Of a stretch of DNA of 64,000 bases, positions 12,295 to 23,728 are shown in pieces; position 1 is the first letter of the stretch; the number at the start of each line of letters is the position of its first letter. The notes under the pieces are model-generated. The model was not told the DNA's origin and searched no databases. It saw only the letters and a list, made by a program, of their open reading frames with translations. The position numbers and the translations under genes were made by a program. The stretch lies in the NCBI RefSeq assembly GCF_003790525.1, contig NZ_CP033635.1; one strand, given 5' to 3'. Source of the DNA: Escherichia coli (GTDB lineage: Bacteria; Pseudomonadota; Gammaproteobacteria; Enterobacterales; Enterobacteriaceae).

Positions 12295-12365
12295 ATATAA
12301 CTTATTTCGCTTAACTAATTGATTTAATTAAATAATTTGCACTACAAAAAGTGCCAAAAATCGCA

Positions 12366-12391
12366 AATTAACTACACCATTAACTACACCG
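12366..12391. repeat. 26-bp element-end repeat 'aattaactacaccattaactacaccg' (tandem 'ttaactacacc'), candidate integrase arm-type site, left end
   Basis: Exact 26-bp copy at 23567-23592 next to the int start; both copies in direct orientation just inside the element ends. Confidence 0.6.
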
Positions 12392-13466
12392 TTCGGCGCA
12401 CTGTATGAAACAACGTGGAACAAATAGACACAAGCGGCAGGCTATACCGTTATCATTTTTCAGCTATCCGTCATGAAGCTGGTGGATGATCACGGATAAC
12501 CAGGCATCTACAGCGCCTTAAAAAGCTGAACCCGACAAACATTTCTGCTTATCGGGTCCGATCGCTCTTTCTACTCGTGGCAGATGAGTTTACTAGGAAG
12601 GGGGGAACATTGTATCAGGCTATCCCCTTTCTGTGCTGATTCGGCTGGTGAATGATCTACTTGGGGCACTACACTTTTCGGATAGTGCGGGTATCCGGTT
12701 TTCTGCCTCATCGAATTTTAAGCCTTCTGACGGCCTGTATATCATTTCCTGTGGAGTTGCCGCCCTGATAGCGAATACTGCGGCAGCATGTGATTTACCC
12801 CCCGTTCTGTTGATGTTTGATGTGGCTGGTTGATGTGCTGCCATGTTTTCCGCCAATGGTGGAAAAGCCCACCAGCGCAACGCAGGACGCATAAAACCAT
12901 TGCGATGACTCTGGACGCAAAACCACGTTTAACGATGTTTTGCACTGAACCAGAATACTGTTCGTTTTTGTCTCGATGTCCGTACGTATTACGTCCGCAC
13001 CTAATCCGGCATCATGCCCACCAGCGTAACGCATTTTTTTAATTTCGTGGCTGTGCGTCCACCAGCTACGCCGGAATGGGGTATTCCGTTTCAACGGAAC
13101 AGGTATGACGAACATAATCGCACCTTCTCCCGAAAACGGTGCGACCTGCATCATCGAAATGGTGATTCAGCTACTCGGCGATTTTCACCATTCAGAATCT
13201 GGCGGGTGAGTTATCCAGCTTCCACCAATGGGGGATTCTGGAACAATCAACGGGTTACGCCTTATCAGCAAAAAAGCACATCAACTGTAAAGGAAATCGT
13301 TATGGTTGCTGGTGGGCTGCGTCACCATCATGGTGATGATGCTGTCCAGTCAGCCGGAACGGTTGAACAGGGTGGCTATGGGTCACTCTGTTGTGCGTTA
13401 TTTGCGTGATCCTGGTACGGGGTGACTATCTTTCAGATAGTCGGTTGCCTGGTTACACGAAAAAAT

Positions 13467-13775
13467 TTACTTCCTGCGTTTATCCTGCTTTGTATGCCCG
13501 TGCTGAATGCCCCGCAGTGGATCTTCTTTTTTCAGGTCGATCCCCATGTCCGTTAGTGTTTTTGTGGCGGCGGTTCTTATGGCACAAATCAGGTCTCTTT
13601 CCGGTTCCCGGGTTATGGTTGCCTTCCGGATGCATGCCGTTCGTCGTTCCGTTACATACTGACGCGCTTCATCACTTGCCGCCTGTTTCAGTAACTCACC
13701 CCAGCGATTAGCCGCCCGTCGCCATAAACCTTTCGCTTCCAGTTCTTCCGCTTTGTCATCATGCACCATAAGCAT
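13467..13775 (-). CDS. PerC-family-like putative transcriptional activator (copy 2)
   Basis: N-terminal MVHDDKAEELEAKGLWRRAANRWGEL resembles PerC/Pch activators (recalled) and is a paralog of the 17352-17624 ORF; start chosen at an internal Met. Confidence 0.45.
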   Translation of the reverse strand: MLMVHDDKAEELEAKGLWRRAANRWGELLKQAASDEARQYVTERRTACIRKATITREPERDLICAIRTAATKTLTDMGIDLKKEDPLRGIQHGHTKQDKRRK

Positions 13776-13883
13776 AATCCCATTGATACCTGTTAACTCT
13801 GAATGGTTGGTTTCTGTTCTTTTGATAATTTCCCGCATAGCTTATTGTATGACAGTACTGTCCCACAATAAGGAGTTGCACGC

Positions 13884-14174
13884 ATGAGAATGACTAGGCA
13901 CAAAAAACAGATTCTTGAACTCTACAAACCTGAGTATCGCGATTGGGTGCGGGTGGAGGCCGGAGATCCGCCTTTTGATGTTCGTGGTGTGACAGTGCTG
14001 CTCTATGGTTCCGAATATCGGCGATATCACATAGAGGCAACACGAAGGACGCTAAACGCTATGGTTCGTGATAAGTTGCTGGAGCGTGTGAAAGTCCGTG
14101 AGCCACGTTTTGATGTGCGTATTGGTGGCGATGGTGCGCATTGCACGGTAATCCGCTATGGCCTGGTAAGGTAA
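13884..14174 (+). CDS. hypothetical protein (96 aa), only plus-strand gene in the left half of the element
   Basis: ORF with ATG start; internal duplicated motif PPFDVRGV / PRFDVRIGG; followed by the palindrome 'cagaatgtaaatttacattctg'. No family recognised. Confidence 0.4.
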   Translation: MRMTRHKKQILELYKPEYRDWVRVEAGDPPFDVRGVTVLLYGSEYRRYHIEATRRTLNAMVRDKLLERVKVREPRFDVRIGGDGAHCTVIRYGLVR

Positions 14175-14276
14175 GCCATCGGGTAAATCAGATGATTAAA
14201 TCACCAGAATGTAAATTTACATTCTGCCAGCCACCAGCTACCCTCCTCAAAATTGAGGACCCTTTTTATCAACTGG

Positions 14277-14558
14277 TTACCGCCGCAACCGTTCCGGCTT
14301 CTTCCACTGATAAGTGTTTTTCGCGCTCTCCTGATACATCGCCACGCGTCGACGGTATGCCAGCAACTCTAGTACTCTGATTCGTATGTCGCGCATATCC
14401 ACGCCGTTAAGCTCAATACCATCACGGCGCATTACATCAGCAACAACACGCACATAATTTTCGGCGGTCACGCTGTCCGGCTGCGTGGCCTGTTCGTCAT
14501 GCTGCTGGCTGATTCCGGTAACGCGGCGGATTAATCCCAGTAGTTCGACTTCTGTCAT
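14277..14558 (-). CDS. hypothetical protein (~94 aa) immediately downstream of the cos/terS region
   Basis: ORF-track frame 14277..14756; start moved to the internal Met (MTEVELLGL...) so that it does not overlap the cos-like sequence. Function unknown. Confidence 0.4.
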   Translation of the reverse strand: MTEVELLGLIRRVTGISQQHDEQATQPDSVTAENYVRVVADVMRRDGIELNGVDMRDIRIRVLELLAYRRRVAMYQESAKNTYQWKKPERLRR

Positions 14559-14591
14559 TGTGCCCCCATCGCTCTGATAGTCTGGTGTCGT

Positions 14592-14655
14592 CGGGTCCTT
14601 TCCGGCATGTGGACCCGTTACGGGGCGTCGACCTCGCGCGTTTTCACTATTTATG
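14592..14655 (+). other. lambda-like cos site, copy A (cosN plus flanking sequence)
   Basis: 'cgggtcctttccgg...gttacggggcgtcgacctcgcgcgttttcactatttatgaaaattttt' closely parallels the phage lambda cos junction as I recall it ('...acgggtcctttccggtgatccgacaggttacg|gggcggcgacctcgcgggttttcgctatttatgaaaattttccgg'); the 12-mer gggcgtcgacct at 14623-14634 differs from the lambda cohesive end at one base. Confidence 0.75.
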
Positions 14656-14671
14656 AAAATTTTTCGGGATC

Positions 14672-14770
14672 CATGTCCGGTTTCTCTGCAAGTTAACCAT
14701 ATGAAAAATATAAAAACATGCTTTCCATGAACCGGACATGCGCAAAAAACAGACACTAAAACCGGACATC
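14672..14770. promoter_or_regulatory. cosB-like array: three 'ccggacat' repeats (one inverted, two direct) with an AT-rich spacer, candidate binding sites for the element's Nu1-like protein
   Basis: 'catgtccgg' at 14672-14680, 'accggacatg' at 14731-14740, 'accggacatc' at 14761-14770; located on the cosB side of cos copy A, where lambda has R3-I1-R2-R1. Confidence 0.5.
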
Positions 14771-14837
14771 GAACCAGTTAACCGAAAGTGTGCACAAATC
14801 ACATTCATTGCTGCGAGTGATTAACAAGTTATCGGCT

Positions 14838-15272
14838 TTACTGTTCTGTATCGGCTGATTGCTCCATGCTGGCACGGCGAACGCTTACGGCATGACGCCA
14901 CCCAGCCAGAAAGCCAGCCATTTTATTTCGTGCCTTGCTCACATCTTCCGGTGAATAGCCGTAAATATGCAAACCTTCATCAAATCGATGTTCTGTTTCT
15001 TCACTGGAGTACTCGTCACGCTCAGATGAAAGCAGCCTCGCAAACATAATTTTTTCCAGCGCACTGGTTTCTACGTGATATCCGATGGTCTGAAGATGGC
15101 TTTTACCTGAATACCAAAGCAATGTATGCCCGATGTGATAACCGCCAGACTTTCCGCGATCCGCATTAAGATACGGCATCCCCTGTTTGGTCCATGCGCG
15201 AATAGTGGTTCTGTTAACCTTGAAATGTTCAGCTATTTCCTGCTGACTTACAAAACAAGCTTTATCAATCAT
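14838..15272 (-). CDS. terminase small subunit Nu1-like DNA-binding protein (possible packaging-specificity/redirecting factor)
   Basis: N-terminus QQEIAEHFKVNRTTIRAWTKQGMPYL parallels lambda Nu1 KKQLADIFGASIRTIQNWQEQGMPVL (winged HTH); C-terminal half unlike Nu1; flanked by cos-like sites. Confidence 0.65.
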   Translation of the reverse strand: MIDKACFVSQQEIAEHFKVNRTTIRAWTKQGMPYLNADRGKSGGYHIGHTLLWYSGKSHLQTIGYHVETSALEKIMFARLLSSERDEYSSEETEHRFDEGLHIYGYSPEDVSKARNKMAGFLAGWRHAVSVRRASMEQSADTEQ

Positions 15273-15339
15273 AATGTTACCTTAACTGCATGGTTAAATA
15301 TCAATCAAGTGGTGGTGGTGTCACCTTCACGGAAAAACG

Positions 15340-15403
15340 TCATAAATAGCGAAAACGTGCGAGGTCGACGCCCCGTAACGGGTCCACATGCCGGAAAGGA
15401 CCC
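15340..15403 (-). other. lambda-like cos site, copy B (inverted copy of A, cosN plus flank, without the 'ccggacat' array)
   Basis: Reverse complement matches copy A at 62 of 64 positions; lies ~70 bp upstream of the Nu1-like gene start on the same strand. Confidence 0.7.
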
Positions 15404-15404
15404 G

Positions 15405-15430
15405 CAAAAAAAGCCGGATTTCTCCGGCCT
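15405..15430 (-). terminator. rho-independent terminator after the head-gene cluster (minus strand)
   Basis: Minus-strand hairpin ggccggagaaatccggcc followed by a T-run; related hairpin motif at 17324-17345. Confidence 0.5.
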
Positions 15431-15502
15431 TGTCTCAGATGGTTTTCAGTATGCGATAGATGTCGCCGTCATCGCCCTGGTTTGTGCCATCGTTCCCCCT
15501 GC

Positions 15503-15838
15503 TTATCGGGCCAGCGGCTGAACGGATACGCCGGAACCCGCAAAGGCGGCGCATTTTTTCGCATCGGTGTCGACGCTCTCAGGCCAGTTAACGGCGGCAA
15601 TATTGAATATCCCCGTCTTGTAACACTGTGCTGATTTCTGCTTTGACGTGTCCACAGGGTACGAGGTCAGATAAACAGCCTTGCCAGATTCCTTACCATC
15701 CCACGCCTTAAACTCGCCATTGTCTGCCAGCATCAGCGGGGTAAATTCCTGAATAACGCCAGCATCAGCGGCAAAATGTACCAGCGTCGTGGATACCTGT
15801 TGGCTGCCTGAAAATAACTCAATGTATGGAGCGTCCAT
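15503..15838 (-). CDS. head decoration protein, lambda gpD-like
   Basis: 111 aa; motifs TPLMLADNGEFKAWDG, YKTGIF, NWPE and KKCAAFAG parallel lambda gpD (TPLMLDTSSRKLVAWDG, YKSGTF, LWPE, KKRTAFAG) as recalled. Confidence 0.7.
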   Translation of the reverse strand: MDAPYIELFSGSQQVSTTLVHFAADAGVIQEFTPLMLADNGEFKAWDGKESGKAVYLTSYPVDTSKQKSAQCYKTGIFNIAAVNWPESVDTDAKKCAAFAGSGVSVQPLAR

Positions 15839-15849
15839 AGAATCCCCCG

Positions 15850-16905
15850 TTAAGCAATTTTGACGGTAACAAATTTGCGAATATCTGCCGGTACAGGCTG
15901 CGGTGCGCTGTGCGTCTGCACGTACTCAATCGCCGGATCGCCGTCCTCAATCCAGTTTTTCGGGTAGTACATGTTTTGCGTTGCGCCCGTTCTTACCGCT
16001 TCCTGATCCATAATCGCACCATATGCCACCAGCCCTTTATTGTTGGTGTTACCCAGGACCAGCAAATCAGGCTCAAGGAAATATTTTTCGGTCCCGTCGC
16101 TGTCAGTGTATTTGCCGGAATAGACGATAAGGGCCAGATCACCAAGATAGCCTTTAAAGCTCACCACTTCGCCCAGGTTTTTACAGGCCAGCTCGGCGGC
16201 GGATTCTGATCCACGGGAAAGATCGTACAGTTCACGGAATTTTTTAAAGCTGCGTAATGTGCGCCATACCTCACCGCCCATAATCATGACGTTGGCGGGG
16301 CAACCTGCCTGATCAGCATAAAGCTCGATGTCATAGATTGGGTCGTGCATGTCTTTATCCTGCTGGGACCATTTTTTACCACTGGCCTGCTGTATGATGC
16401 AGTTTTCCGGTATTTTCCAGTCGATTTCATAGCGTTCTATGCCTTCGCCCTCAATGATGTTTTTTCCGGTCGTTACCGCATTCACCGCCAGCCATTCCAC
16501 GCGCGCCTTAATGGCGTTTATCTGGCGGCGCATGTTGCCAGTAATCAGGCGCATACGGCGGTAAGTTGGATCGTTAAGCTGTGCCGGATCTTCTCCATCC
16601 ATGCGCATGATGGTCTTTGTTGGATCGATTTCGTGCTTTGGCTTCATGTAGCCTGGTTTAATCGTGCTGGTTTCGTACCCTTTATCGCGCTGGACCTGAC
16701 TACCCACCATAGGAGAACAGAACGCTGACATCGTAACCTCTTCAATGTCCAGGGTGTCCAGCATGATGTTTTGGGTGTTGAAGGTCGCCACGTTCGGGAA
16801 AAACAGCGTGGTAAACAGCGGACTAAATTTATATTCCGAAATATCCCCGCGATTCAGGTACGCGAAAAGCTGGTTAGTTGTAAGTGCCTTTGCTTTGCCT
16901 GTCAT
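15850..16905 (-). CDS. major capsid protein, lambda gpE family
   Basis: 351 aa; YKFSPLFTTLFFP and PGYMKPKHEIDP parallel lambda gpE FKFDPLFLRLFF and PGYVKPKHEVNP; similar length to gpE. Confidence 0.75.
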   Translation of the reverse strand: MTGKAKALTTNQLFAYLNRGDISEYKFSPLFTTLFFPNVATFNTQNIMLDTLDIEEVTMSAFCSPMVGSQVQRDKGYETSTIKPGYMKPKHEIDPTKTIMRMDGEDPAQLNDPTYRRMRLITGNMRRQINAIKARVEWLAVNAVTTGKNIIEGEGIERYEIDWKIPENCIIQQASGKKWSQQDKDMHDPIYDIELYADQAGCPANVMIMGGEVWRTLRSFKKFRELYDLSRGSESAAELACKNLGEVVSFKGYLGDLALIVYSGKYTDSDGTEKYFLEPDLLVLGNTNNKGLVAYGAIMDQEAVRTGATQNMYYPKNWIEDGDPAIEYVQTHSAPQPVPADIRKFVTVKIA

Positions 16906-17111
16906 TATTCACCTCCGTGAACCTGATTGATACCCAGCGCCGCACGCAAATAGGTGCGCACCTGCCAGCCTGTTGACGGCTCAACCATCGCCAGCGGATC
17001 AAGTCCTGCCGCAATGCCTGCTTTTACATTCTGCTGGTGGCGTTCCTTGAGCGCCTCCACGATGTCGGGGCTTATGTAGACCGTCACCCCGCCTTTTTTC
17101 TCTTCTGCCAT
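16905..17111 (-). CDS. hypothetical protein (68 aa), first gene of the head cluster
   Basis: ORF with ATG start, stop overlaps the capsid gene start; no family recognised. Confidence 0.4.
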   Translation of the reverse strand: MAEEKKGGVTVYISPDIVEALKERHQQNVKAGIAAGLDPLAMVEPSTGWQVRTYLRAALGINQVHGGE

Positions 17112-17323
17112 AGTCAGAAATTCCTCTTTGACTTAAAAAATCATAACTGGATGTTCATCCAGTCCTGATTATAATCATGATTGCATTTTGCGCAACAATA
17201 TTGAGTTACGTTGCAAATTATGAAATGATTATCCCGATCATGTGTGTCAGTTCACCATAAAAAACCTCGTATACAAAAGCCCCATAAGCCCCCTGTGACC
17301 TTATCGGGCTTTTTTTAGGCGTA

Positions 17324-17345
17324 AAAAAGCCGGATTGCTCCGGCT
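17324..17345 (-). terminator. rho-independent terminator downstream of the PerC-like gene (minus strand)
   Basis: Minus-strand hairpin gccggagcaatccggc followed by TTTTTT. Confidence 0.5.
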
Positions 17346-17351
17346 GTGTGC

Positions 17352-17624
17352 TCACTTCTGCGGGTAGTTGCGCCATATTGCTTTGCCAATACCAGCTATC
17401 CCCATTTGTTTTTCAGTGCGATTAACTGACCTTTTCAGAGCGCCTAAATCATCCGGCGGCTCCGGTGGCCTCTGTGCCTTACGGATACATTCCGCGCGAC
17501 GCATTGCCACCTGTTCGCGCTCCTTGTCTGTCTCCACCAGCCTCATAACTTCACCCCATCGCGCCGCCGCCCTCCGGTAAAAGCCTTTTGCCTCGAGTTC
17601 CTCCGCTATGCGGTCATGTACCAT
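17352..17624 (-). CDS. PerC-family-like putative transcriptional activator (copy 1)
   Basis: MVHDRIAEELEAKGFYRRAAARWGEV...; paralog of the 13467-13775 ORF; start placed at the internal Met just after the ssb stop. Confidence 0.45.
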   Translation of the reverse strand: MVHDRIAEELEAKGFYRRAAARWGEVMRLVETDKEREQVAMRRAECIRKAQRPPEPPDDLGALKRSVNRTEKQMGIAGIGKAIWRNYPQK

Positions 17625-17634
17625 CGTCACCCCC

Positions 17635-18045
17635 TCAGAACGGAATATCATCACCGTAAGGGTCATCGCCTCCCGCTGGTGGCTGATTACCCTGTGTGCC
17701 TGTGGTTTTGCGTCTGTTCCCGCCAGGACGTGCCGCACGGGCACTGATTACGCTGTCTGCAATAACCTGCCAGCCCTGCCGCGTTTCCCCGTTCTGTCCG
17801 GTCCACTGGCTGACCTGCATCGTGCCGGATACGCTGGCAACGTCGCCTTTTTGATGTTTAGCCAGAAAGTCGGCCTGTTTGCCAAATGCGATGACCGATA
17901 ACCATAACGTCGCCTGTCCGTCCTGTGCCTGGCCGCATGGTAAAGATACCGCCATACGCGCCAGCGTCATCGGTGTACCCTTACTGGTCTGTTTTACCTG
18001 CGGGTCGTCCACCAGCCGCCCGTAAGCTGCTATCTGTGCTGTCAT
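17635..18045 (-). CDS. ssb: single-stranded DNA-binding protein (SSB)
   Basis: 136 aa with OB-fold-like core, Gly/Pro/Gln-rich linker and the acidic C-terminal tail ...DDIPF typical of SSB. Confidence 0.7.
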   Translation of the reverse strand: MTAQIAAYGRLVDDPQVKQTSKGTPMTLARMAVSLPCGQAQDGQATLWLSVIAFGKQADFLAKHQKGDVASVSGTMQVSQWTGQNGETRQGWQVIADSVISARAARPGGNRRKTTGTQGNQPPAGGDDPYGDDIPF

Positions 18046-18284
18046 GCTGTCTGCTCTCCGGTTTTAACGTTGATGGTTGTTACCTGTTCTGCTTCGGCAA
18101 TATCCCGCTCTGTCAGCGTGGCAAAGTTTGCCGCCGTCGTTGTCATGAATGCGCTTATCAGTTCGGGATGTGCTTTCGCGTATCCTTCCCCTGTGTTGCG
18201 GTCGATGATTTTTATCGCCACCCTCAGCCAGTGCTCTGTAAGGTCAATGGCGCGGTGATCTGTCTTTTTGTGGCTTACCTTCAT
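18042..18284 (-). CDS. hypothetical protein (80 aa)
   Basis: ORF in the replication module, overlaps ssb start by 4 nt (coupled); no family recognised. Confidence 0.45.
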   Translation of the reverse strand: MKVSHKKTDHRAIDLTEHWLRVAIKIIDRNTGEGYAKAHPELISAFMTTTAANFATLTERDIAEAEQVTTINVKTGEQTA

Positions 18285-18287
18285 GAT

Positions 18288-18656
18288 TTACTCCAGAGTA
18301 CCGCTATTGCTGCTGTCGTTAACCGGATACCAGGCAAATACCATCGATTCACCACAGTGAACAAACTTCTTATCCGGCAGATAAAGGCACTCGCACATTC
18401 CCTCATCAGGACTATGCGGACTCATGCCCAGCTCACTGGTCAGCACGGGTAAGATTTCGCGGCAGGTGTTCCCCGCACCGAAATAATCAACCTCACAAAG
18501 CGCCCATGCAGCAATCGGGCTGTACCATTCCGTGCCGTCGTCGTCTTTGAACTTAGCCCACCAGCCAGGAAGGGCAGTTGATATGCTCAGTGTTTCAATT
18601 TCAGTGTTCATAAATTTACCTTCGGTATTTTGTCCTGCTGTTCGATTTTTATTCAT
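18288..18656 (-). CDS. hypothetical protein (122 aa or shorter)
   Basis: ORF directly downstream of the iteron region; Cys-containing; no family recognised. Confidence 0.45.
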   Translation of the reverse strand: MNKNRTAGQNTEGKFMNTEIETLSISTALPGWWAKFKDDDGTEWYSPIAAWALCEVDYFGAGNTCREILPVLTSELGMSPHSPDEGMCECLYLPDKKFVHCGESMVFAWYPVNDSSNSGTLE

Positions 18657-18860
18657 TGCTCACCATCTCTCACTTTTACTACTCACTTTTTAAAGCGTCT
18701 CGCTTCGTCTCACTTGAGATTTTTGTGTTTTGTATGTGCATGTTTCATAAGTGTTTTTTCACTGCTCACTTTTGAGCATGTATACAGGTGAGAAAGTGAG
18801 TAATTGTGTTAATATTTTGTAAAAACCTCACCATTACTCACTTTTACTACTCACTTTTTA
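18657..18860. repeat. iteron array, candidate replication origin ('ctcactttt' repeated ~7 times, one inverted, around an AT-rich core)
   Basis: Copies at 18669, 18682, 18709 (variant), 18765, 18793 (inverted), 18837 and 18850; 'ctcacttttactactcacttttta' occurs twice; lies immediately 3' of the rep ATPase gene. Confidence 0.6.
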
Positions 18861-20264
18861 CAGTGGTCCTACATCATCACCATCAATGTAAATCACGGCG
18901 TCTTTTTCCAGTTTGGCTAACCATCGCCGCATATTTTTCACGTCATACCCAAGCCGTTTCATGTCATCACGTAACAGCGGGATCGTGCACTTGTCGCCGT
19001 TCTGTGTGCGTGAACGGATGCACCCCCATAGCGCGGTATGGTTTTCCGTCTTGTTGCCTGCCTCCTCGATGCGCTCCAGTTCAGCAGGGGCGCGGGGAAC
19101 GTCAATCACCACCATGGACACAATTTCTTCGCCATCTGTATCGGTGAACACCTCCACGCTTTTAAGGTCGTATGCACTCTCTTTTGGCTCCTCTGCGTCC
19201 TTCATCTTCGTACACGCCGCAACCAGTGCTGTAACGTCTGAATTTTCCCTGCTGATTCGGTACTCTGCATCAAGCGCGGCACGGAATGCACTGGAACCAC
19301 GCGCCCCCTTTGTTTCATCCTTGCCGGAATGGTGAACCACCAGCACCGTGGCCCCTGTGGCCTGCTTTATCGCGTCACACCCCTGGATAAATGCGCCCAT
19401 ATCACGGGAATCATTTTCATCATTCCCACCAAAGCAACGGGCCAGCGTGTCGATCACAATCAGCCGCACATTTTCGCCCGTTCTGCTCTTAACAAGTCCG
19501 GCAGTCCTGATAACCTGCTCCACATAGTCAGGCGATGCAGGGAAAACAGGCGCGTTAATGATGCACAAATCTGTAACCACCTTGTCGTGGGTTATCTCCC
19601 ACGCCTTAACGCGGCGTTTTACGCCCATGCTGCCTTCACCAGCGATATAGATAACCGCACCCTTACTTACCCTGCGGCCTCCCCATGCCATACCTGTGGC
19701 AACATGGCACGACCAGGAAATGGCGAGGAACGATTTATAAGAACCGCTGGCCCCGTAGGTGCTGCATAATGACTCAGCCGGAATAAGCCCCTTAATGACG
19801 TAGCTTTGCTGCGCATCGAATCCCTCAGAACCCCATGAGATGGGAAGTGTGATTTTTCGCTTTCCGCCATTCATGACCAGGCTTTCCCCTCTCTCCCATG
19901 TTTCCCGTAGTCGTGGTAGCTGGTCGCTCCAGTCCTCCAGCAGTTCGAAATTTTCAGAAAGTAGCCGCGCCTCCTGGACTCCGGCGATCGCCAGTTTTGT
20001 GGCAATGGTCAGCATCTGCATATCGTCCAGGTTTCCGGCGCGTATGACCTTTACCCTGTATCGTCCTTCATCAACAATCTGTAAGTTGTCCAGTTCGCTT
20101 AACTGATAACGGCCCAGATAAACCGGAGGGATGGGATCGCCTGCTTTTTTGGCCTGTGCAATCATGTAATGTTCTGCAAAGGAGTGAGCATTATCACCCG
20201 CAAAAATAACCGCCTCAGTGTGTTTATCTTTCGGTAACAGTTTTACGTTCGGTGCAAGTTTCAT
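18858..20264 (-). CDS. replication protein with RecA-like P-loop ATPase domain (RepA/DnaB-like, satellite pri-rep type)
   Basis: 468 aa; Walker A YGASGSYKS, Walker B-like RLIVIDTL, HHSGK motif; C-terminal region possibly DNA-binding; iterons directly downstream. Confidence 0.65.
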   Translation of the reverse strand: MKLAPNVKLLPKDKHTEAVIFAGDNAHSFAEHYMIAQAKKAGDPIPPVYLGRYQLSELDNLQIVDEGRYRVKVIRAGNLDDMQMLTIATKLAIAGVQEARLLSENFELLEDWSDQLPRLRETWERGESLVMNGGKRKITLPISWGSEGFDAQQSYVIKGLIPAESLCSTYGASGSYKSFLAISWSCHVATGMAWGGRRVSKGAVIYIAGEGSMGVKRRVKAWEITHDKVVTDLCIINAPVFPASPDYVEQVIRTAGLVKSRTGENVRLIVIDTLARCFGGNDENDSRDMGAFIQGCDAIKQATGATVLVVHHSGKDETKGARGSSAFRAALDAEYRISRENSDVTALVAACTKMKDAEEPKESAYDLKSVEVFTDTDGEEIVSMVVIDVPRAPAELERIEEAGNKTENHTALWGCIRSRTQNGDKCTIPLLRDDMKRLGYDVKNMRRWLAKLEKDAVIYIDGDDVGPL

Positions 20265-20548
20265 TTCTTACCCCCTGCGACCAGCATTTCACGGATTTTG
20301 CGGATATAACTTGCAGCACGTTTCTGATTAACGGCTTTACGATGGCCCACCAGCGTGAAATCACGCCGGAACTGATAAACAGGCATAACGCAGTCATATT
20401 CGTAGCCTTCACGGCGGTAAGTGATGCGACGTTCCTCCACGCCCTTAATCATTACCGTGCCGCCGTAGTTATCACGGAAAATATCGCCGGGACGGATTTC
20501 AGGACGAGCGGGGCCGCTGGCATTAACGCCAGAATTTTTATTTTTCAT
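20261..20548 (-). CDS. hypothetical protein (95 aa), translationally coupled upstream of rep
   Basis: ORF overlapping the rep start by 4 nt; basic; no family recognised. Confidence 0.45.
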   Translation of the reverse strand: MKNKNSGVNASGPARPEIRPGDIFRDNYGGTVMIKGVEERRITYRREGYEYDCVMPVYQFRRDFTLVGHRKAVNQKRAASYIRKIREMLVAGGKK

Positions 20549-20553
20549 GTTTT

Positions 20554-20781
20554 TTATTCTCCGGTGTGCTGTTCTTTATATCTGTCGTGAATTGCCATCA
20601 CTGTATTTAATTCATTAATAACAGCCGTTAATAGCGTACGCACGGCAGAAAACATCATTGAATCAGATTCATCGCCACTTTCCTGCACATCAATTAAATT
20701 AAGTAGTAATGCGTCCATTTCCTTTGCGCGGATTAATGCCTTTTCACAATGAAAAATAACACCAAAGGGTATTTTATTCAT
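20554..20781 (-). CDS. hypothetical protein (~75 aa; ORF-track frame extends to 20823)
   Basis: First gene of the minus-strand replication operon; start uncertain (MNKIPFGV... versus the upstream Met). Confidence 0.4.
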   Translation of the reverse strand: MNKIPFGVIFHCEKALIRAKEMDALLLNLIDVQESGDESDSMMFSAVRTLLTAVINELNTVMAIHDRYKEQHTGE

Positions 20782-21060
20782 GACTCCCCTCCTGACGGAT
20801 ACGGGCGGCGAATACAGCGACACAACCGGACGGGCAACGGTTACGCGCTTCGCGTTCCGTCCAGGCGGTCACGTGGATAATTTGAGATTCTCCGGCACTC
20901 AGTGCCAGAAAACGCCACACAAAGGCGGTTTGTGTGTGCGCTAGTCGTGGGGTATGCTGTGTTCCAGCCATAATCGTTACTCCTGTTAACGGTTTGGTTA
21001 GACGCCCTGCATGTGTTACAGCACTGCGGGGCGTTGTCTTTTTAACGGCTTTCGTGATAG

Positions 21061-21104
21061 GGTGTACACCTATCAAGCAAAAACATAACGCTATAGGTGT
21101 ACAC
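21061..21104. promoter_or_regulatory. perfect 12-bp inverted repeat (gtgtacacctat ... ataggtgtacac), candidate operator abutting a small regulator gene
   Basis: Read directly from sequence; the 3' half ends 1 nt before the ATG at 21105. Confidence 0.5.
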
Positions 21105-21299
21105 ATGTCAACAGTTATTAAGCGAGATAAAAAACCAAAGGGAACAGGAAAAGCCCCCCCATTCCATATGCGAATAGCTCCAGAACTGAAAGAGCAGTTT
21201 GATAATGAGGCCAGCAATGATGGGGTAAGCCTAGCCAACTGGCTTAAAGAGTTGGGGCGCGCCGAACTAAAGCGACGCGGCATTGAACCTAAAGGCTGA
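21105..21299 (+). CDS. small basic protein (64 aa), possible ribbon-helix-helix/YlcI-YnfO-like prophage regulator
   Basis: MSTVIKRDKKPKGTGKAPPFHMRIAPELKEQFDNEASNDGVSLANWLKELGRAELKRRGIEPKG; family assignment from memory only; divergent from the replication operon. Confidence 0.4.
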   Translation: MSTVIKRDKKPKGTGKAPPFHMRIAPELKEQFDNEASNDGVSLANWLKELGRAELKRRGIEPKG

Positions 21300-21302
21300 T
21301 GT

Positions 21303-21426
21303 ATGACTGAAAAGCAGACCGATAACAAACTTTCTCTACCAGAGAATAAACCAGCAGGCTTCTTACCAAGAAAAATCCTTGATGAGATCAAACGCCGCCA
21401 GCGCCGCAAGGCCAAAGAGCAGGAAT
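21303..21426 (+). CDS. possible small protein (41 aa, Lys/Arg-rich C-terminus)
   Basis: ATG 4 nt after the preceding stop; MTEKQTDNKLSLPENKPAGFLPRKILDEIKRRQRRKAKEQE; followed by a strong hairpin terminator. Too short for the ORF track. Confidence 0.25.
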
Positions 21427-21460
21427 AGCCCACCAGCAAGCCAGCACACTGATCACATTG

Positions 21461-21490
21461 GCCACCGTGACAGGTGGCCTTTTCTTTGCC
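21461..21490 (+). terminator. rho-independent terminator (ggccaccgtgacaggtggcc + T-rich tract)
   Basis: Perfect 7-bp stem with 6-nt loop followed by ttttctttg, just after the 41-codon ORF. Confidence 0.55.
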
Positions 21491-21752
21491 CGTTATCCGG
21501 CAATTGTGGCGCTTCGCCACACGGTTGATATAATTCCCCTGCTCAGATTCATTTTTTGCGCGGCAGGTAAATTGTTCAGAAAGGCGGCTCCTTATCGGGG
21601 CCGCTTTTTTTATGTCTGAAAAACCGCGATTTTGTTGTTTTTCAGTTTCACCAGGCCGAACGAAGCCCCGCCCATGTTCGGGCGTATATCCAGTCTTCAT
21701 GGTTAAATCTCTGTATTAGTGGATGGGTGGCGGCTGTGTGCCGCCAGTCTTT

Positions 21753-21941
21753 TTAGTGAACTGCCTCGCAGCTTTCCTTCCATGCCAGAACTTCGGATAA
21801 AGACCAGCCAACGGAACGACCGCCCAGCTTACGCCGTGATGGGAATTGTCCGGCCTTTTCCAGGCGGTAGCGGCATGAGCGGCTAAGGCCTGTTAGCTTT
21901 TCGCATTCTTTTTCACGTATAAAGCGATCAGTGCTTAACAC
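21753..21941 (-). CDS. alpA: AlpA-family (Phage_AlpA) transcriptional regulator
   Basis: 62 aa; ...EKLTGLSRSCRYRLEKAGQFPSRRKLGGRSVGWSLSEVLAW... matches the AlpA HTH signature; adjacent to int. Confidence 0.75.
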   Translation of the reverse strand: MLSTDRFIREKECEKLTGLSRSCRYRLEKAGQFPSRRKLGGRSVGWSLSEVLAWKESCEAVH

Positions 21942-22315
21942 TATTGCCCCCTTTCGTTTCTTAAAGAGTTATTTCGTGTTCTATTGCGTTGGGATGTGTC
22001 TGATTGTGTCAGGGTGATTCAGAGTTGGCAAATGTTGGTGGCGGGTATTTTACAGAAACGGGGTGATTTTAATAAAAATCATTTTAATTCAGTATTATGC
22101 AAAGGCATAAAATCTCGTTTTATGCCTTTTTTCTCACTATTTAAAGCGTTATTCGCTAATGTATAAAAAACCAGTTGAGCATTAAAAATCAGCAACTTAT
22201 AAATCTGTATACTTTTTGACCTCTTGTTCGTGGTTGTTTCACGTTGTTGTGTATTGTTGCACGTTGTATCTGTGCACTTATCCAGTATGCGCATACTGAA
22301 AAAACACGAAAAAAA

Positions 22316-23563
22316 TTATTTTCTTCTGGCTACTGGTAGCGTGGTTACGTTTTCATGTGCTCCCGCCAGTATCTCCAACCGCTCCACCCACATATCCAGC
22401 GCATTGCGTTTCGCATCCAGATAACGGGAATGATTATAAACTCGCTGCATTCCTGGCATCTGGTGGCCTGTAAGCTGCTCCACGACGTGAGGATCCACGC
22501 CTAAATCGTTCAGCATCGTTGTAAAGGTGCGCCGGATGTCATGCAGTGACCATTGAGGGTGTTTTAGCCTCCTGTGCGCTAATCTGCCGTACTGCGATAC
22601 GCTGGCCTCCTGTTTCACTTCCCCCAGTAATAAGCCCGTGTGCCTGTTCTGCTCCACCAGCCGCGTGACGAACGGCAGGATCGCTTCCGGTATGGGCCGG
22701 AATATTGCGACCTTCGTTTTGCTGTGCTCCTTCGGAACGGTCCAGAGCATTTCCGTGAAATCCCACTCCCCGATCTCCGATAACCTCAGTTCTACCGTCC
22801 TGGCTCCGAAGACAATCAGGAGGCGGATTAGTGCGACGTAGTAAGGGGAAAATATTTTTTTGTCCAGTGCCTGCAATAATTCGCCCAGTTCTTTGGTGCT
22901 TAAGACACGTTCGCTTATATCCGGTTTTTTCCCAACGTCCGCCACGTTCAGATCGTCCAGAACGTTGCTGATTGCATAGCGCCGCCTCCGGCAAAACTTA
23001 AGCGCCTGTTTGCACGCCTGTAGCACGAATCCGGCAGTAACAGGCGTTCGCTTTGCCACCCGATCAAAACAGGCCAGCCAGTGCCGTAGCTCGCATTTAT
23101 CCAGCGGCATAGCACCAATGTGCTGTATTACGTGATTATTAAGTCGCCTTTTCAGGGCGATATAATCCACGCGGTTTTCCTTTACGTAAGACTCAAGCCA
23201 GTAGGTGAGCGCATCTCCAACCGTTACAGGCTTTAACGCTTCCTGCATGGTGTAATTCATCTCATGACGTGGATTTTTCCCCTCAGCCAGCCATGCGCGA
23301 CACTGGGCGGCTTTTTCCCTGGCTGATTTCAGGCTCAGATCAGGATAATTTCCCAGCTTAATACGTTCCGGTCGTGTCTCTCTTCCCGTTCCGGCCCTGT
23401 AAGTGAAATACCAGGTTAAAAGGCCGCTGGTTGAATGCCTGACGCTCAGATTTCCACCGTCATTAAGAAAGGCTGTTTTTTGGGCGGGTGTGCCGTTGAT
23501 TTTCCTTAGCTGTGTATCGCTCAGCTTGTTAAGTGCTCTGGTCATAATTTTGAATCCGGTCAT
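22316..23563 (-). CDS. int: tyrosine site-specific integrase (P4-type)
   Basis: ~415 aa; N-terminal arm-binding-like region, C-terminal catalytic motifs (HDIRRTF, GHQ..VYNHSRY); located at the element's right end next to the arm-type repeat. Exact start uncertain (GTG/ATG/ATG cluster). Confidence 0.85.
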   Translation of the reverse strand: MTGFKIMTRALNKLSDTQLRKINGTPAQKTAFLNDGGNLSVRHSTSGLLTWYFTYRAGTGRETRPERIKLGNYPDLSLKSAREKAAQCRAWLAEGKNPRHEMNYTMQEALKPVTVGDALTYWLESYVKENRVDYIALKRRLNNHVIQHIGAMPLDKCELRHWLACFDRVAKRTPVTAGFVLQACKQALKFCRRRRYAISNVLDDLNVADVGKKPDISERVLSTKELGELLQALDKKIFSPYYVALIRLLIVFGARTVELRLSEIGEWDFTEMLWTVPKEHSKTKVAIFRPIPEAILPFVTRLVEQNRHTGLLLGEVKQEASVSQYGRLAHRRLKHPQWSLHDIRRTFTTMLNDLGVDPHVVEQLTGHQMPGMQRVYNHSRYLDAKRNALDMWVERLEILAGAHENVTTLPVARRK

Positions 23564-23566
23564 CAC

Positions 23567-23592
23567 AATTAACTACACCATTAACTACACCG
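23567..23592. repeat. 26-bp element-end repeat (same as 12366-12391), right end, immediately upstream of int
   Basis: Exact 26/26 identity with the left copy. Confidence 0.6.
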
Positions 23593-23719
23593 ATCGTTGC
23601 ACAAAGGGCTACAACGTGAAACAAGCTGGAACAAGAAAAATCACAAATTTGTTTATAATCAAAAACATAATGCACAACCTGAAACATTATGAAACGGCAA
23701 AAAACACTAATTGATAAAG

Positions 23720-23728
23720 TGCTGTTAT
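23720..23728. repeat. attR core (direct repeat 'tgctgttat')
   Basis: Identical to 12286-12294; element sequence on the left, tqsA sequence on the right. Confidence 0.7.

Follow-up and report, generated by a model that had tools for sequence, protein, structure and literature searches.

Several satellites reach the same outcome in their helper phages, i.e., the satellite is packaged preferentially and packaging of the helper is reduced. This is achieved by TerS and Ppi in SaPIs, by Psu and Sid in P4, and by the Rpp proteins in PICIs. SaPIs replace the TerS of the helper with their own, and Ppi inhibits the phage TerS; P4 resizes capsids, while Rpp forms a hybrid with the helper TerS that changes its DNA specificity. 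The closest described system is RppA of EcCICFT073 (c1503; 144 residues; Fillol-Salom 2019, PMC6739421). Packaging is the stage at which RppA stops lambda and phi80, mutations that let phages escape lie in TerS (E65K and others), and Rpp-TerS binding was seen by two-hybrid and pull-down assays (PMC6739421). Transfer of the island needs RppA and the Rpp-TerS interaction; expression of RppA lowers the transfer of phage-cos plasmids and raises that of cos1 plasmids, and the specificity for cos1 resides in its cosB (PMC6739421). The R21A/T22A variant loses stimulation and keeps interference, which makes the two functions separable, and L51D and F121R abolish TerS binding or dimerisation (PMC6739421). 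In RppC, the N-terminal winged HTH (residues 1-64) resembles lambda TerS (rmsd, 1.6 A; 25% identity), and helices a4 to a6 form a homodimer; when it is bound to TerS 1-98, its DNA-binding domain stands where the second TerS domain would be, and helix a3 of TerS lies against Rpp a6 (PMC6739421). TerS is thought to be the adaptor to TerL, and Rpp carries no TerL-binding tail (Murialdo and Feiss 2022, PMC9026076).

Here, we describe an ORF in a 64-kb window (i.e., the whole stretch of Escherichia coli DNA that was analysed; 64,000 nucleotides). Its product is very probably a "redirecting phage packaging" protein of the RppA type from a cos-type PICI inserted in tqsA.

The rpp gene compared with RppA and lambda Nu1

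The gene and the domains of its product are as follows.

14838..15272, minus strand: rpp gene (RppA orthologue), ATG-initiated ORF of 144 aa
Product residues 1-64: winged-HTH DNA-binding domain
Product residues 65-144: helices for dimerisation and TerS contact

The product is identical to the CFT073 protein WP_000565609.1 (RppA, c1503) at 138 of 144 residues (96%), gap-free and at the same length, and the gene is present in E. coli CFT073 with 98.4% nucleotide identity. The start of the supplementary RppA sequence, MIDKACFVSQQEIAEHFKVNRTTIRAWTKQGMPYLNADRGKSGGYHIGHT, is identical in the window ORF, and the published mutagenic primer for c1503 F121R fits 14872-14951 save for its 2 engineered bases (PMC6739421). 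Together with the position of c1503, these matches identify the ORF, on sequence grounds, as an orthologue or allele of rppA, i.e., a member of the Rpp family and an already known protein. In a phmmer search of the PDB, the best match was RppC (6HLK chain A; also 6HN7; E = 4.3e-32; residues 2-125), and it takes in the HTH domain as well as the greater part of the C-terminal half. RppC of EcCIEC2733.1 (PDB 6HLK; with lambda TerS 1-98, PDB 6HN7) has the same architecture of a winged HTH and helical dimerisation region, but it is only ~44% identical (PMC6739421), has 153 aa and a different, basic C-terminal tail, and binds lambda TerS with higher affinity. Homology to the characterised RppA, RppB, and RppC extends over the full length of the product, and an RppB-like cluster is 83% identical to it.

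Seventeen family members from Escherichia, Klebsiella, Phytobacter, and Salmonella were aligned. Residues 8-49 are almost invariant among them, and the Rpp-type winged HTH retains its Rpp-specific DNA-contact residues (R21, T22, T23, R25, W27, K29, R39, and K41, invariant in all 17 members, the window product included). F121 is likewise invariant in this alignment. The four residues R21, T22, L51, and F121 are all present in the window product, as they are in RppA, where R21 and T22 serve recognition of cos1, L51 serves TerS heterodimerisation, and F121 serves homodimerisation (PMC6739421); each is either invariant or conserved among the aligned family members. An AlphaFold2 model built with the 17-sequence alignment was of low confidence (mean pLDDT, 50.7), with an order of helices consistent with RppC. 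Among 5,426 complete E. coli genomes, 109 carry an rppA-type gene.

The gene differs from CFT073 rppA by seven nucleotides, of which six are nonsynonymous. Five of the six substitutions fall in codons 54-64 (15081-15113, minus strand; Y54S, H59R, Q61E, T62A, and G64R), where there is no synonymous change. No other part of the Rpp family alignment varies as much as this stretch, which lies on or beside the TerS-contacting helix; the helper range or affinity of this allele may therefore differ from that of RppA. The residue 54-64 patch could be an arms-race hot spot at this helix or a recombination patch.

The original prediction described a Nu1-like protein whose N-terminal ~30 residues align with the winged HTH of lambda Nu1. 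The likeness is real, but it is longer than was claimed. In a single BLASTP comparison, 15 of 49 positions (31%) were identical to lambda Nu1 (E = 7e-7), with residues 8-55 pairing with Nu1 residues 3-51, and PHROG 57 (terminase small subunit) matched residues 7-54 (E = 1.1e-8). The Nu1-like stretch is thus about 50 residues long and corresponds to the entire winged HTH. PDB chains of the lambda TerS N-terminal domain matched more weakly (phmmer; E = 0.014 to 0.025). The Pfam profile Phage_Nu1 (PF07471), which had been proposed as a check, matched at model positions 3-52 of 164 with 16.0 bits (i-E, 0.0093), i.e., below the family threshold and not above several generic HTH families; the stronger evidence from RppA and RppC takes its place. 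A tblastn search of the 64-kb window with lambda Nu1 missed the gene at E <= 10, and the likeness shows up only with pairwise BLASTP and profile methods.

Past residue 57, BLASTP gave no alignment to lambda Nu1, in agreement with the predicted divergence of the C-terminal half. Its description as Ser/Glu-rich is fair for residues 65-144 (Ser, 12.5%; Glu, 13.8%; chiefly within SSERDEYSSEETEHRFDE), although the enrichment is only mild. In Rpp proteins, this half is not disordered but folds into helices a4 to a6, through which the homodimer and further contacts with TerS a3 are made (PMC6739421). The predicted lack of a large terminase was also borne out: tblastn queries with lambda gpA and a second lambdoid TerL reached a best E value of 0.6 across the 64-kb window, and no terminase appears in the RefSeq annotation of a 99% identical island.

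Lambda gpNu1 and the window product therefore share the winged-HTH fold (31% identity over ~49 residues), and both genes lie immediately downstream of a cosQ-cosN-cosB array, but the DNA-contact residues and the cosB sequences differ. There is no full-length match to the profile of the Nu1-type small terminase (PF07471) at threshold, and the locus has neither the Nu1-type C-terminal oligomerisation/gpA-binding region nor an adjacent terL. Since the Pfam match is sub-threshold over one third of the profile, the oligomerisation/gpA-binding half is missing, and terL is not adjacent, the product, judged by its sequence, does not strictly belong to the Nu1/TerS family. Its short length (144 versus 181 aa, i.e., 37 residues fewer than lambda Nu1), without a TerL-binding C-terminal domain, is a feature of Rpp proteins and accords with PMC9026076.

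The Nu1-like DNA-binding domain and the position of rpp relative to cos, which is that of terS, could also be read as signs of a shortened small terminase that is self-sufficient, i.e., one that itself binds the helper TerL and does not need the helper TerS. We consider this reading hardly tenable, given that the protein is 37 residues shorter than Nu1 with no likeness to its oligomerisation or gpA-binding regions, that EcCICFT073 is not packaged by a terS-lacking helper (Fillol-Salom 2018, PMC6092414), and that no TerL-binding motif is conserved among Rpps (PMC9026076). An ordinary HTH transcription factor or excisionase-like (MerR/BldC/AlpA-like) regulator of island genes, with no role in packaging, is similarly improbable in the extreme. 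Weak sub-threshold matches to HTH_28, HTH_17, MerR_1, and BldC and the overlap of sigma-70-like hexamers with the proposed binding site upstream of rpp would fit such a regulator, but all of the HTH-family matches are below thresholds and cover only ~20 to 30 residues, while the proteins matched over the full length are Rpps, whose function in packaging has been demonstrated. Moreover, AlpA-type and PerC-type regulators are already encoded in the island itself, and TerS binding and cos1-specific stimulation of packaging were demonstrated for RppA, which is 96% identical. Annotation as part of a defence system or as a transcription factor was rejected; NCBIfam and PADLOC gave only BldC and MADS1 HTH fragments.

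The island, its cos1 site, and the proposed mode of action

The RppA-type gene lies in an island of ~11.4 kb (roughly 12297-23727) that splits tqsA. Fragments of tqsA flank the element in an annotated, near-identical locus, and the junction sequence was inspected in the window. The main genes of the island are listed below.

22316..23566, minus strand: tyrosine integrase of the island (PHROG 1, 2e-73)
18858..20264: RepA-type helicase
17352-17744: PerC-like regulator, paralogous to the left-end PerC-like gene
15850..16905, minus strand: major capsid protein homologue, orthologue of EcCICFT073 c1499 (PHROG 29, 2e-108; CFT073 synteny)
15503..15838, minus strand: head decoration protein homologue, orthologue of EcCICFT073 c1500 (PHROG 49, 2e-26; CFT073 synteny)
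14277..14558, minus strand: small conserved gene downstream of cos2 (PHROG 1561, E = 7.5e-54, residues 67-159 of a long ORF)

The small gene would encode ~93 aa from an internal Met, and it is a 282-bp CDS in both annotated relatives, including the copy after EcCICFT073 cos2. Other island genes encode an AlpA-type HTH regulator, an Icd-like product, a DUF4222 protein, SSB, and two PerC-like regulators (the one listed and its left-end paralogue). This gene make-up is that of a Gram-negative cos-type PICI (PMC6092414). The island shows the features by which PICIs are recognised (i.e., a size of ~10 to 15 kb, a terminal integrase, an AlpA-type regulator, its own replicase, a helper-type cos, and no lysis, tail, or terminase genes). 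It is found at 97 to 99% identity in three complete genomes, of which two (PKF4 and PKF11) are from the same host species, and the helper phage of the strain lies outside the window. An Rfam scan found no RNA families in the island.

The local order is the same as in EcCICFT073 (i.e., capsid homologue, decoration homologue, cos1, rpp, cos2, and small gene), so that the two islands share the cos1/cos2 flanks, the upstream capsid and decoration homologues, and the downstream small gene. They differ in that EcCICFT073 has a 414-bp gene between the decoration gene and cos1, carries a primase in place of the RepA-type helicase, and adjoins roxA/phoQ, whereas the window island lies in tqsA and carries at its left end an additional segment, in which a second PerC-like gene is found. 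These differences in site, replicase, the 414-bp gene, and the left end are of the mosaic kind expected for PICIs. In addition, the window island has the six RppA substitutions and a G-to-T change in the cosN of both cos sites.

A 78-nt inverted repeat (91% complementary) brackets rpp, with arms at 14592-14669 and 15327-15404. In an alignment with lambda, each arm holds a cosQ (GGGTCCTTTCC) and a cosN, and the arms are the published cos1 (upstream of rpp) and cos2 (downstream, inverted) of Fig. S1A of PMC6739421. The gene therefore stands directly downstream of a cos with lambda-like cosQ and cosN and a non-phage cosB, within a terminase-free PICI. The elements of cos1 are as follows.

15404->15327, minus strand: cos1, inverted-repeat arm aligned with lambda and EcCICFT073
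15393..15403, minus strand: cosQ-like element of cos1, GGGTCCTTTCC, the same as the lambda cosQ core
15362..15373, minus strand: cosN of cos1, 12-nt cohesive end GGGCGTCGACCT, aligned with lambda cosN and EcCICFT073 cos1
15192..15335, minus strand: cosB of cos1, island-specific and, by orthology, the Rpp-dependent site (extent from published primers)
15326->15309, minus strand: R3-PICI, putative Rpp site, bp 48-65 counted from the cohesive end (proposed by Murialdo and Feiss, PMC9026076)

The cosB of cos1 extends into the first 27 codons of rpp and had no match in 50,697 phage records. The cos1 sequence is identical to that of EcCICFT073 at 252 of 259 positions, with no differences in bp 48-65, and the segment of the phi80-chimera primer (i.e., the start of cosB that was moved into phage 80) fits 15311-15336 exactly. 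Counted from the first base of the cos1 cohesive end, the ATG of rpp is at bp 102, which is the published distance for PICI cos-rpp units (PMC9026076). Both copies of cosN (14623-14634, plus strand; 15362-15373, minus strand) read GGGCGTCGACCT and so differ from lambda and EcCICFT073 by G to T at position 6. The two arms are 91% alike in the window island versus 82% in CFT073, which suggests gene conversion between cos1 and cos2; the shared cosN change together with the alike arms suggests either such conversion or adaptation to a particular helper.

Two further features were observed upstream of rpp. Sigma-70-like hexamers (GTGACA-16-GATATT; 15297-15324, minus strand; a consensus match only) overlap the proposed Rpp site in the cosB of cos1, and given this overlap Rpp might autoregulate its own promoter. 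Directly after the decoration gene come a terminator-like hairpin (GCCGGAGAAATCCGGC and a T-run) and cos1 (15404-15503).

With high probability, the product works as RppA does. The steps of the mechanism are established in the literature for RppA and RppC, and we infer them for the window protein from orthology. On induction of a lambdoid helper, an Rpp homodimer would form via the C-terminal helices and capture monomers of the helper TerS (Nu1), the N-terminal winged HTH of Rpp taking the place of the second TerS DNA-binding domain. The hybrid Rpp-TerS unit would fail to recognise the phage cosB, and phage packaging would be blocked. The same unit would recognise the island cosB beside cos1, immediately upstream of rpp. 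Since Rpp has no TerL-binding tail, the captured TerS would bring the helper TerL to the island cosN/cosQ, and island concatemers would be cut and packaged into helper capsids.

The original prediction had proposed a protein that recognises the cosB of its own element and either recruits or blocks the terminase of a helper. This is the established function of RppA and, by analogy with a protein that is 96% identical, probably that of the window product, with the refinements that the helper partner is TerS/Nu1 and not TerL, that Rpp imitates one of the TerS DNA-binding domains when it forms a heterodimer (PMC6739421), and that it has both effects, i.e., the phage is blocked and the terminase is drawn to the island.

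The protein might instead have been left with interference only, sequestering the helper TerS and blocking the phage in an island that is no longer efficiently mobilised via cos1. Such a loss could be read from the G-to-T change at position 6 of cosN in both cos sites and from the substitutions clustered at residues 54-64, and the separation of interference from island packaging by R21A/T22A in RppA would allow it. We regard it as improbable, because the same cosN variant in both cos sites suggests maintenance and not decay, neither the DNA-contact residues nor the Rpp site in the cosB of cos1 is altered, and the island has kept its integrase, replication genes, and both cos sites and occurs at 97 to 99% identity in three complete genomes. 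None of the three rival readings (i.e., interference only, an HTH regulator, and a shortened terminase) is competitive with an RppA-type function.

The cos2 site and a second class of lambdoid phages

The second arm of the inverted repeat is followed by a cosB of a different kind.

14592..14669, plus strand: cos2 core, inverted partner of cos1 (matches Fig. S1A of PMC6739421)
14593-14603, plus strand: cosQ of cos2
14623-14634, plus strand: cosN of cos2
14670..14769, plus strand: phage-type cosB of cos2, three R-like octamers around an A/T-rich segment
14673-14680, plus strand: R-like octamer ATGTCCGG in the cosB of cos2
14732-14739 and 14762-14769, plus strand: R-like octamers CCGGACAT in the cosB of cos2

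The cos2 sequence is identical to that of EcCICFT073 at 271 of 281 positions. The region 14591-14769 is also 94.4% identical to a sequence of phage PhiR12_1 and its relatives whose end lies ~50 bp upstream of their Nu1 gene, and the cos2 region is 99% identical to a sequence in an APEC O18 prophage that lies 50 bp upstream of its TerS/TerL genes. The similarity to phages stops immediately past the third octamer. The TerS of this class (i.e., PhiR12_1, the APEC O18 prophage, and many O157 prophages) has 169 aa and an N-terminal domain (VATQTEVARHLSLTDRQLRRLQKLPGAP...) unlike that of lambda. Among the 5,426 complete E. coli genomes, 1,184 contain a cos2-type cosB, compared with the 109 that carry an rppA-type gene, and the CFT073 genome has a second copy of this cosB elsewhere.

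In the earlier work, cos2 was compared only with lambda, phi80, and phi4, and the island cosB sequences were described as completely divergent from those of these three phages (PMC6092414, PMC6739421). Deletion of cos2 raises transfer of the island by lambda (PMC6092414), and cos2 is not discussed in the 2022 review (PMC9026076). The literature searched gave no paper linking cos2 with the cos of the 169-aa-TerS phages and nothing relevant on the PhiR12 phages. We also considered whether cos2 is the cos of the CFT073 helper phi4; this was rejected, as the cosB of phi4 has different R elements and phi4 has a lambda-like TerS (2018 supplement).

The near-exact copy of the cosB of another lambdoid class suggests a second, Rpp-independent packaging route. 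We tentatively propose, at somewhat less than even confidence, that cos2 may be the complete cos of a second lambdoid class and not a degenerate duplicate, so that the island would have two routes in opposite orientations, i.e., an Rpp-dependent one at cos1 (for lambda-, phi80-, and 21-type TerS) and a direct, Rpp-independent one at cos2. Use of cos2 by a second helper would explain why it is retained although its deletion improves transfer by lambda. This hypothesis is the sole part of the present analysis that might be new, and, if true, it would extend what is known of the helper range and the packaging logic of PICIs.

Annotation of rpp and further features of the island

The window product and all of the 17 retrieved relatives are labelled "hypothetical protein" or generic HTH in RefSeq and other sources, and no Rpp model was found in Pfam, NCBIfam, or PADLOC, although crystal structures and functional data exist. 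The main value of the identification is therefore correct annotation: the presence of rpp points to a PICI that can be mobilised, that interferes with lambdoid phages, and through which accessory genes spread among pathogenic E. coli. The design of the hijacker (i.e., a Nu1-like head, a non-Nu1 tail, and no terminase) could be read from the sequence alone, and this pattern could guide the search for analogous hijackers elsewhere.

Two features were noted toward the ends of the island. A 26-nt exact direct repeat, AATTAACTACACCATTAACTACACCG (i.e., two copies of ATTAACTACACC), occurs at 12366-12391 and 23567-23592, just inside the island ends, and one copy abuts the start of the integrase gene; these repeats are probably arm-type binding sites of the integrase. 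The left-end segment (12400-14270) is missing from EcCICFT073 and is probably accessory cargo. It includes 13467-13838 (minus strand) and 13884-14174 (plus strand), and it holds the second PerC-like regulator, a 96-aa ORF that contains an imperfect direct repeat of 40 nt, and ORFs that had no match in PHROG.
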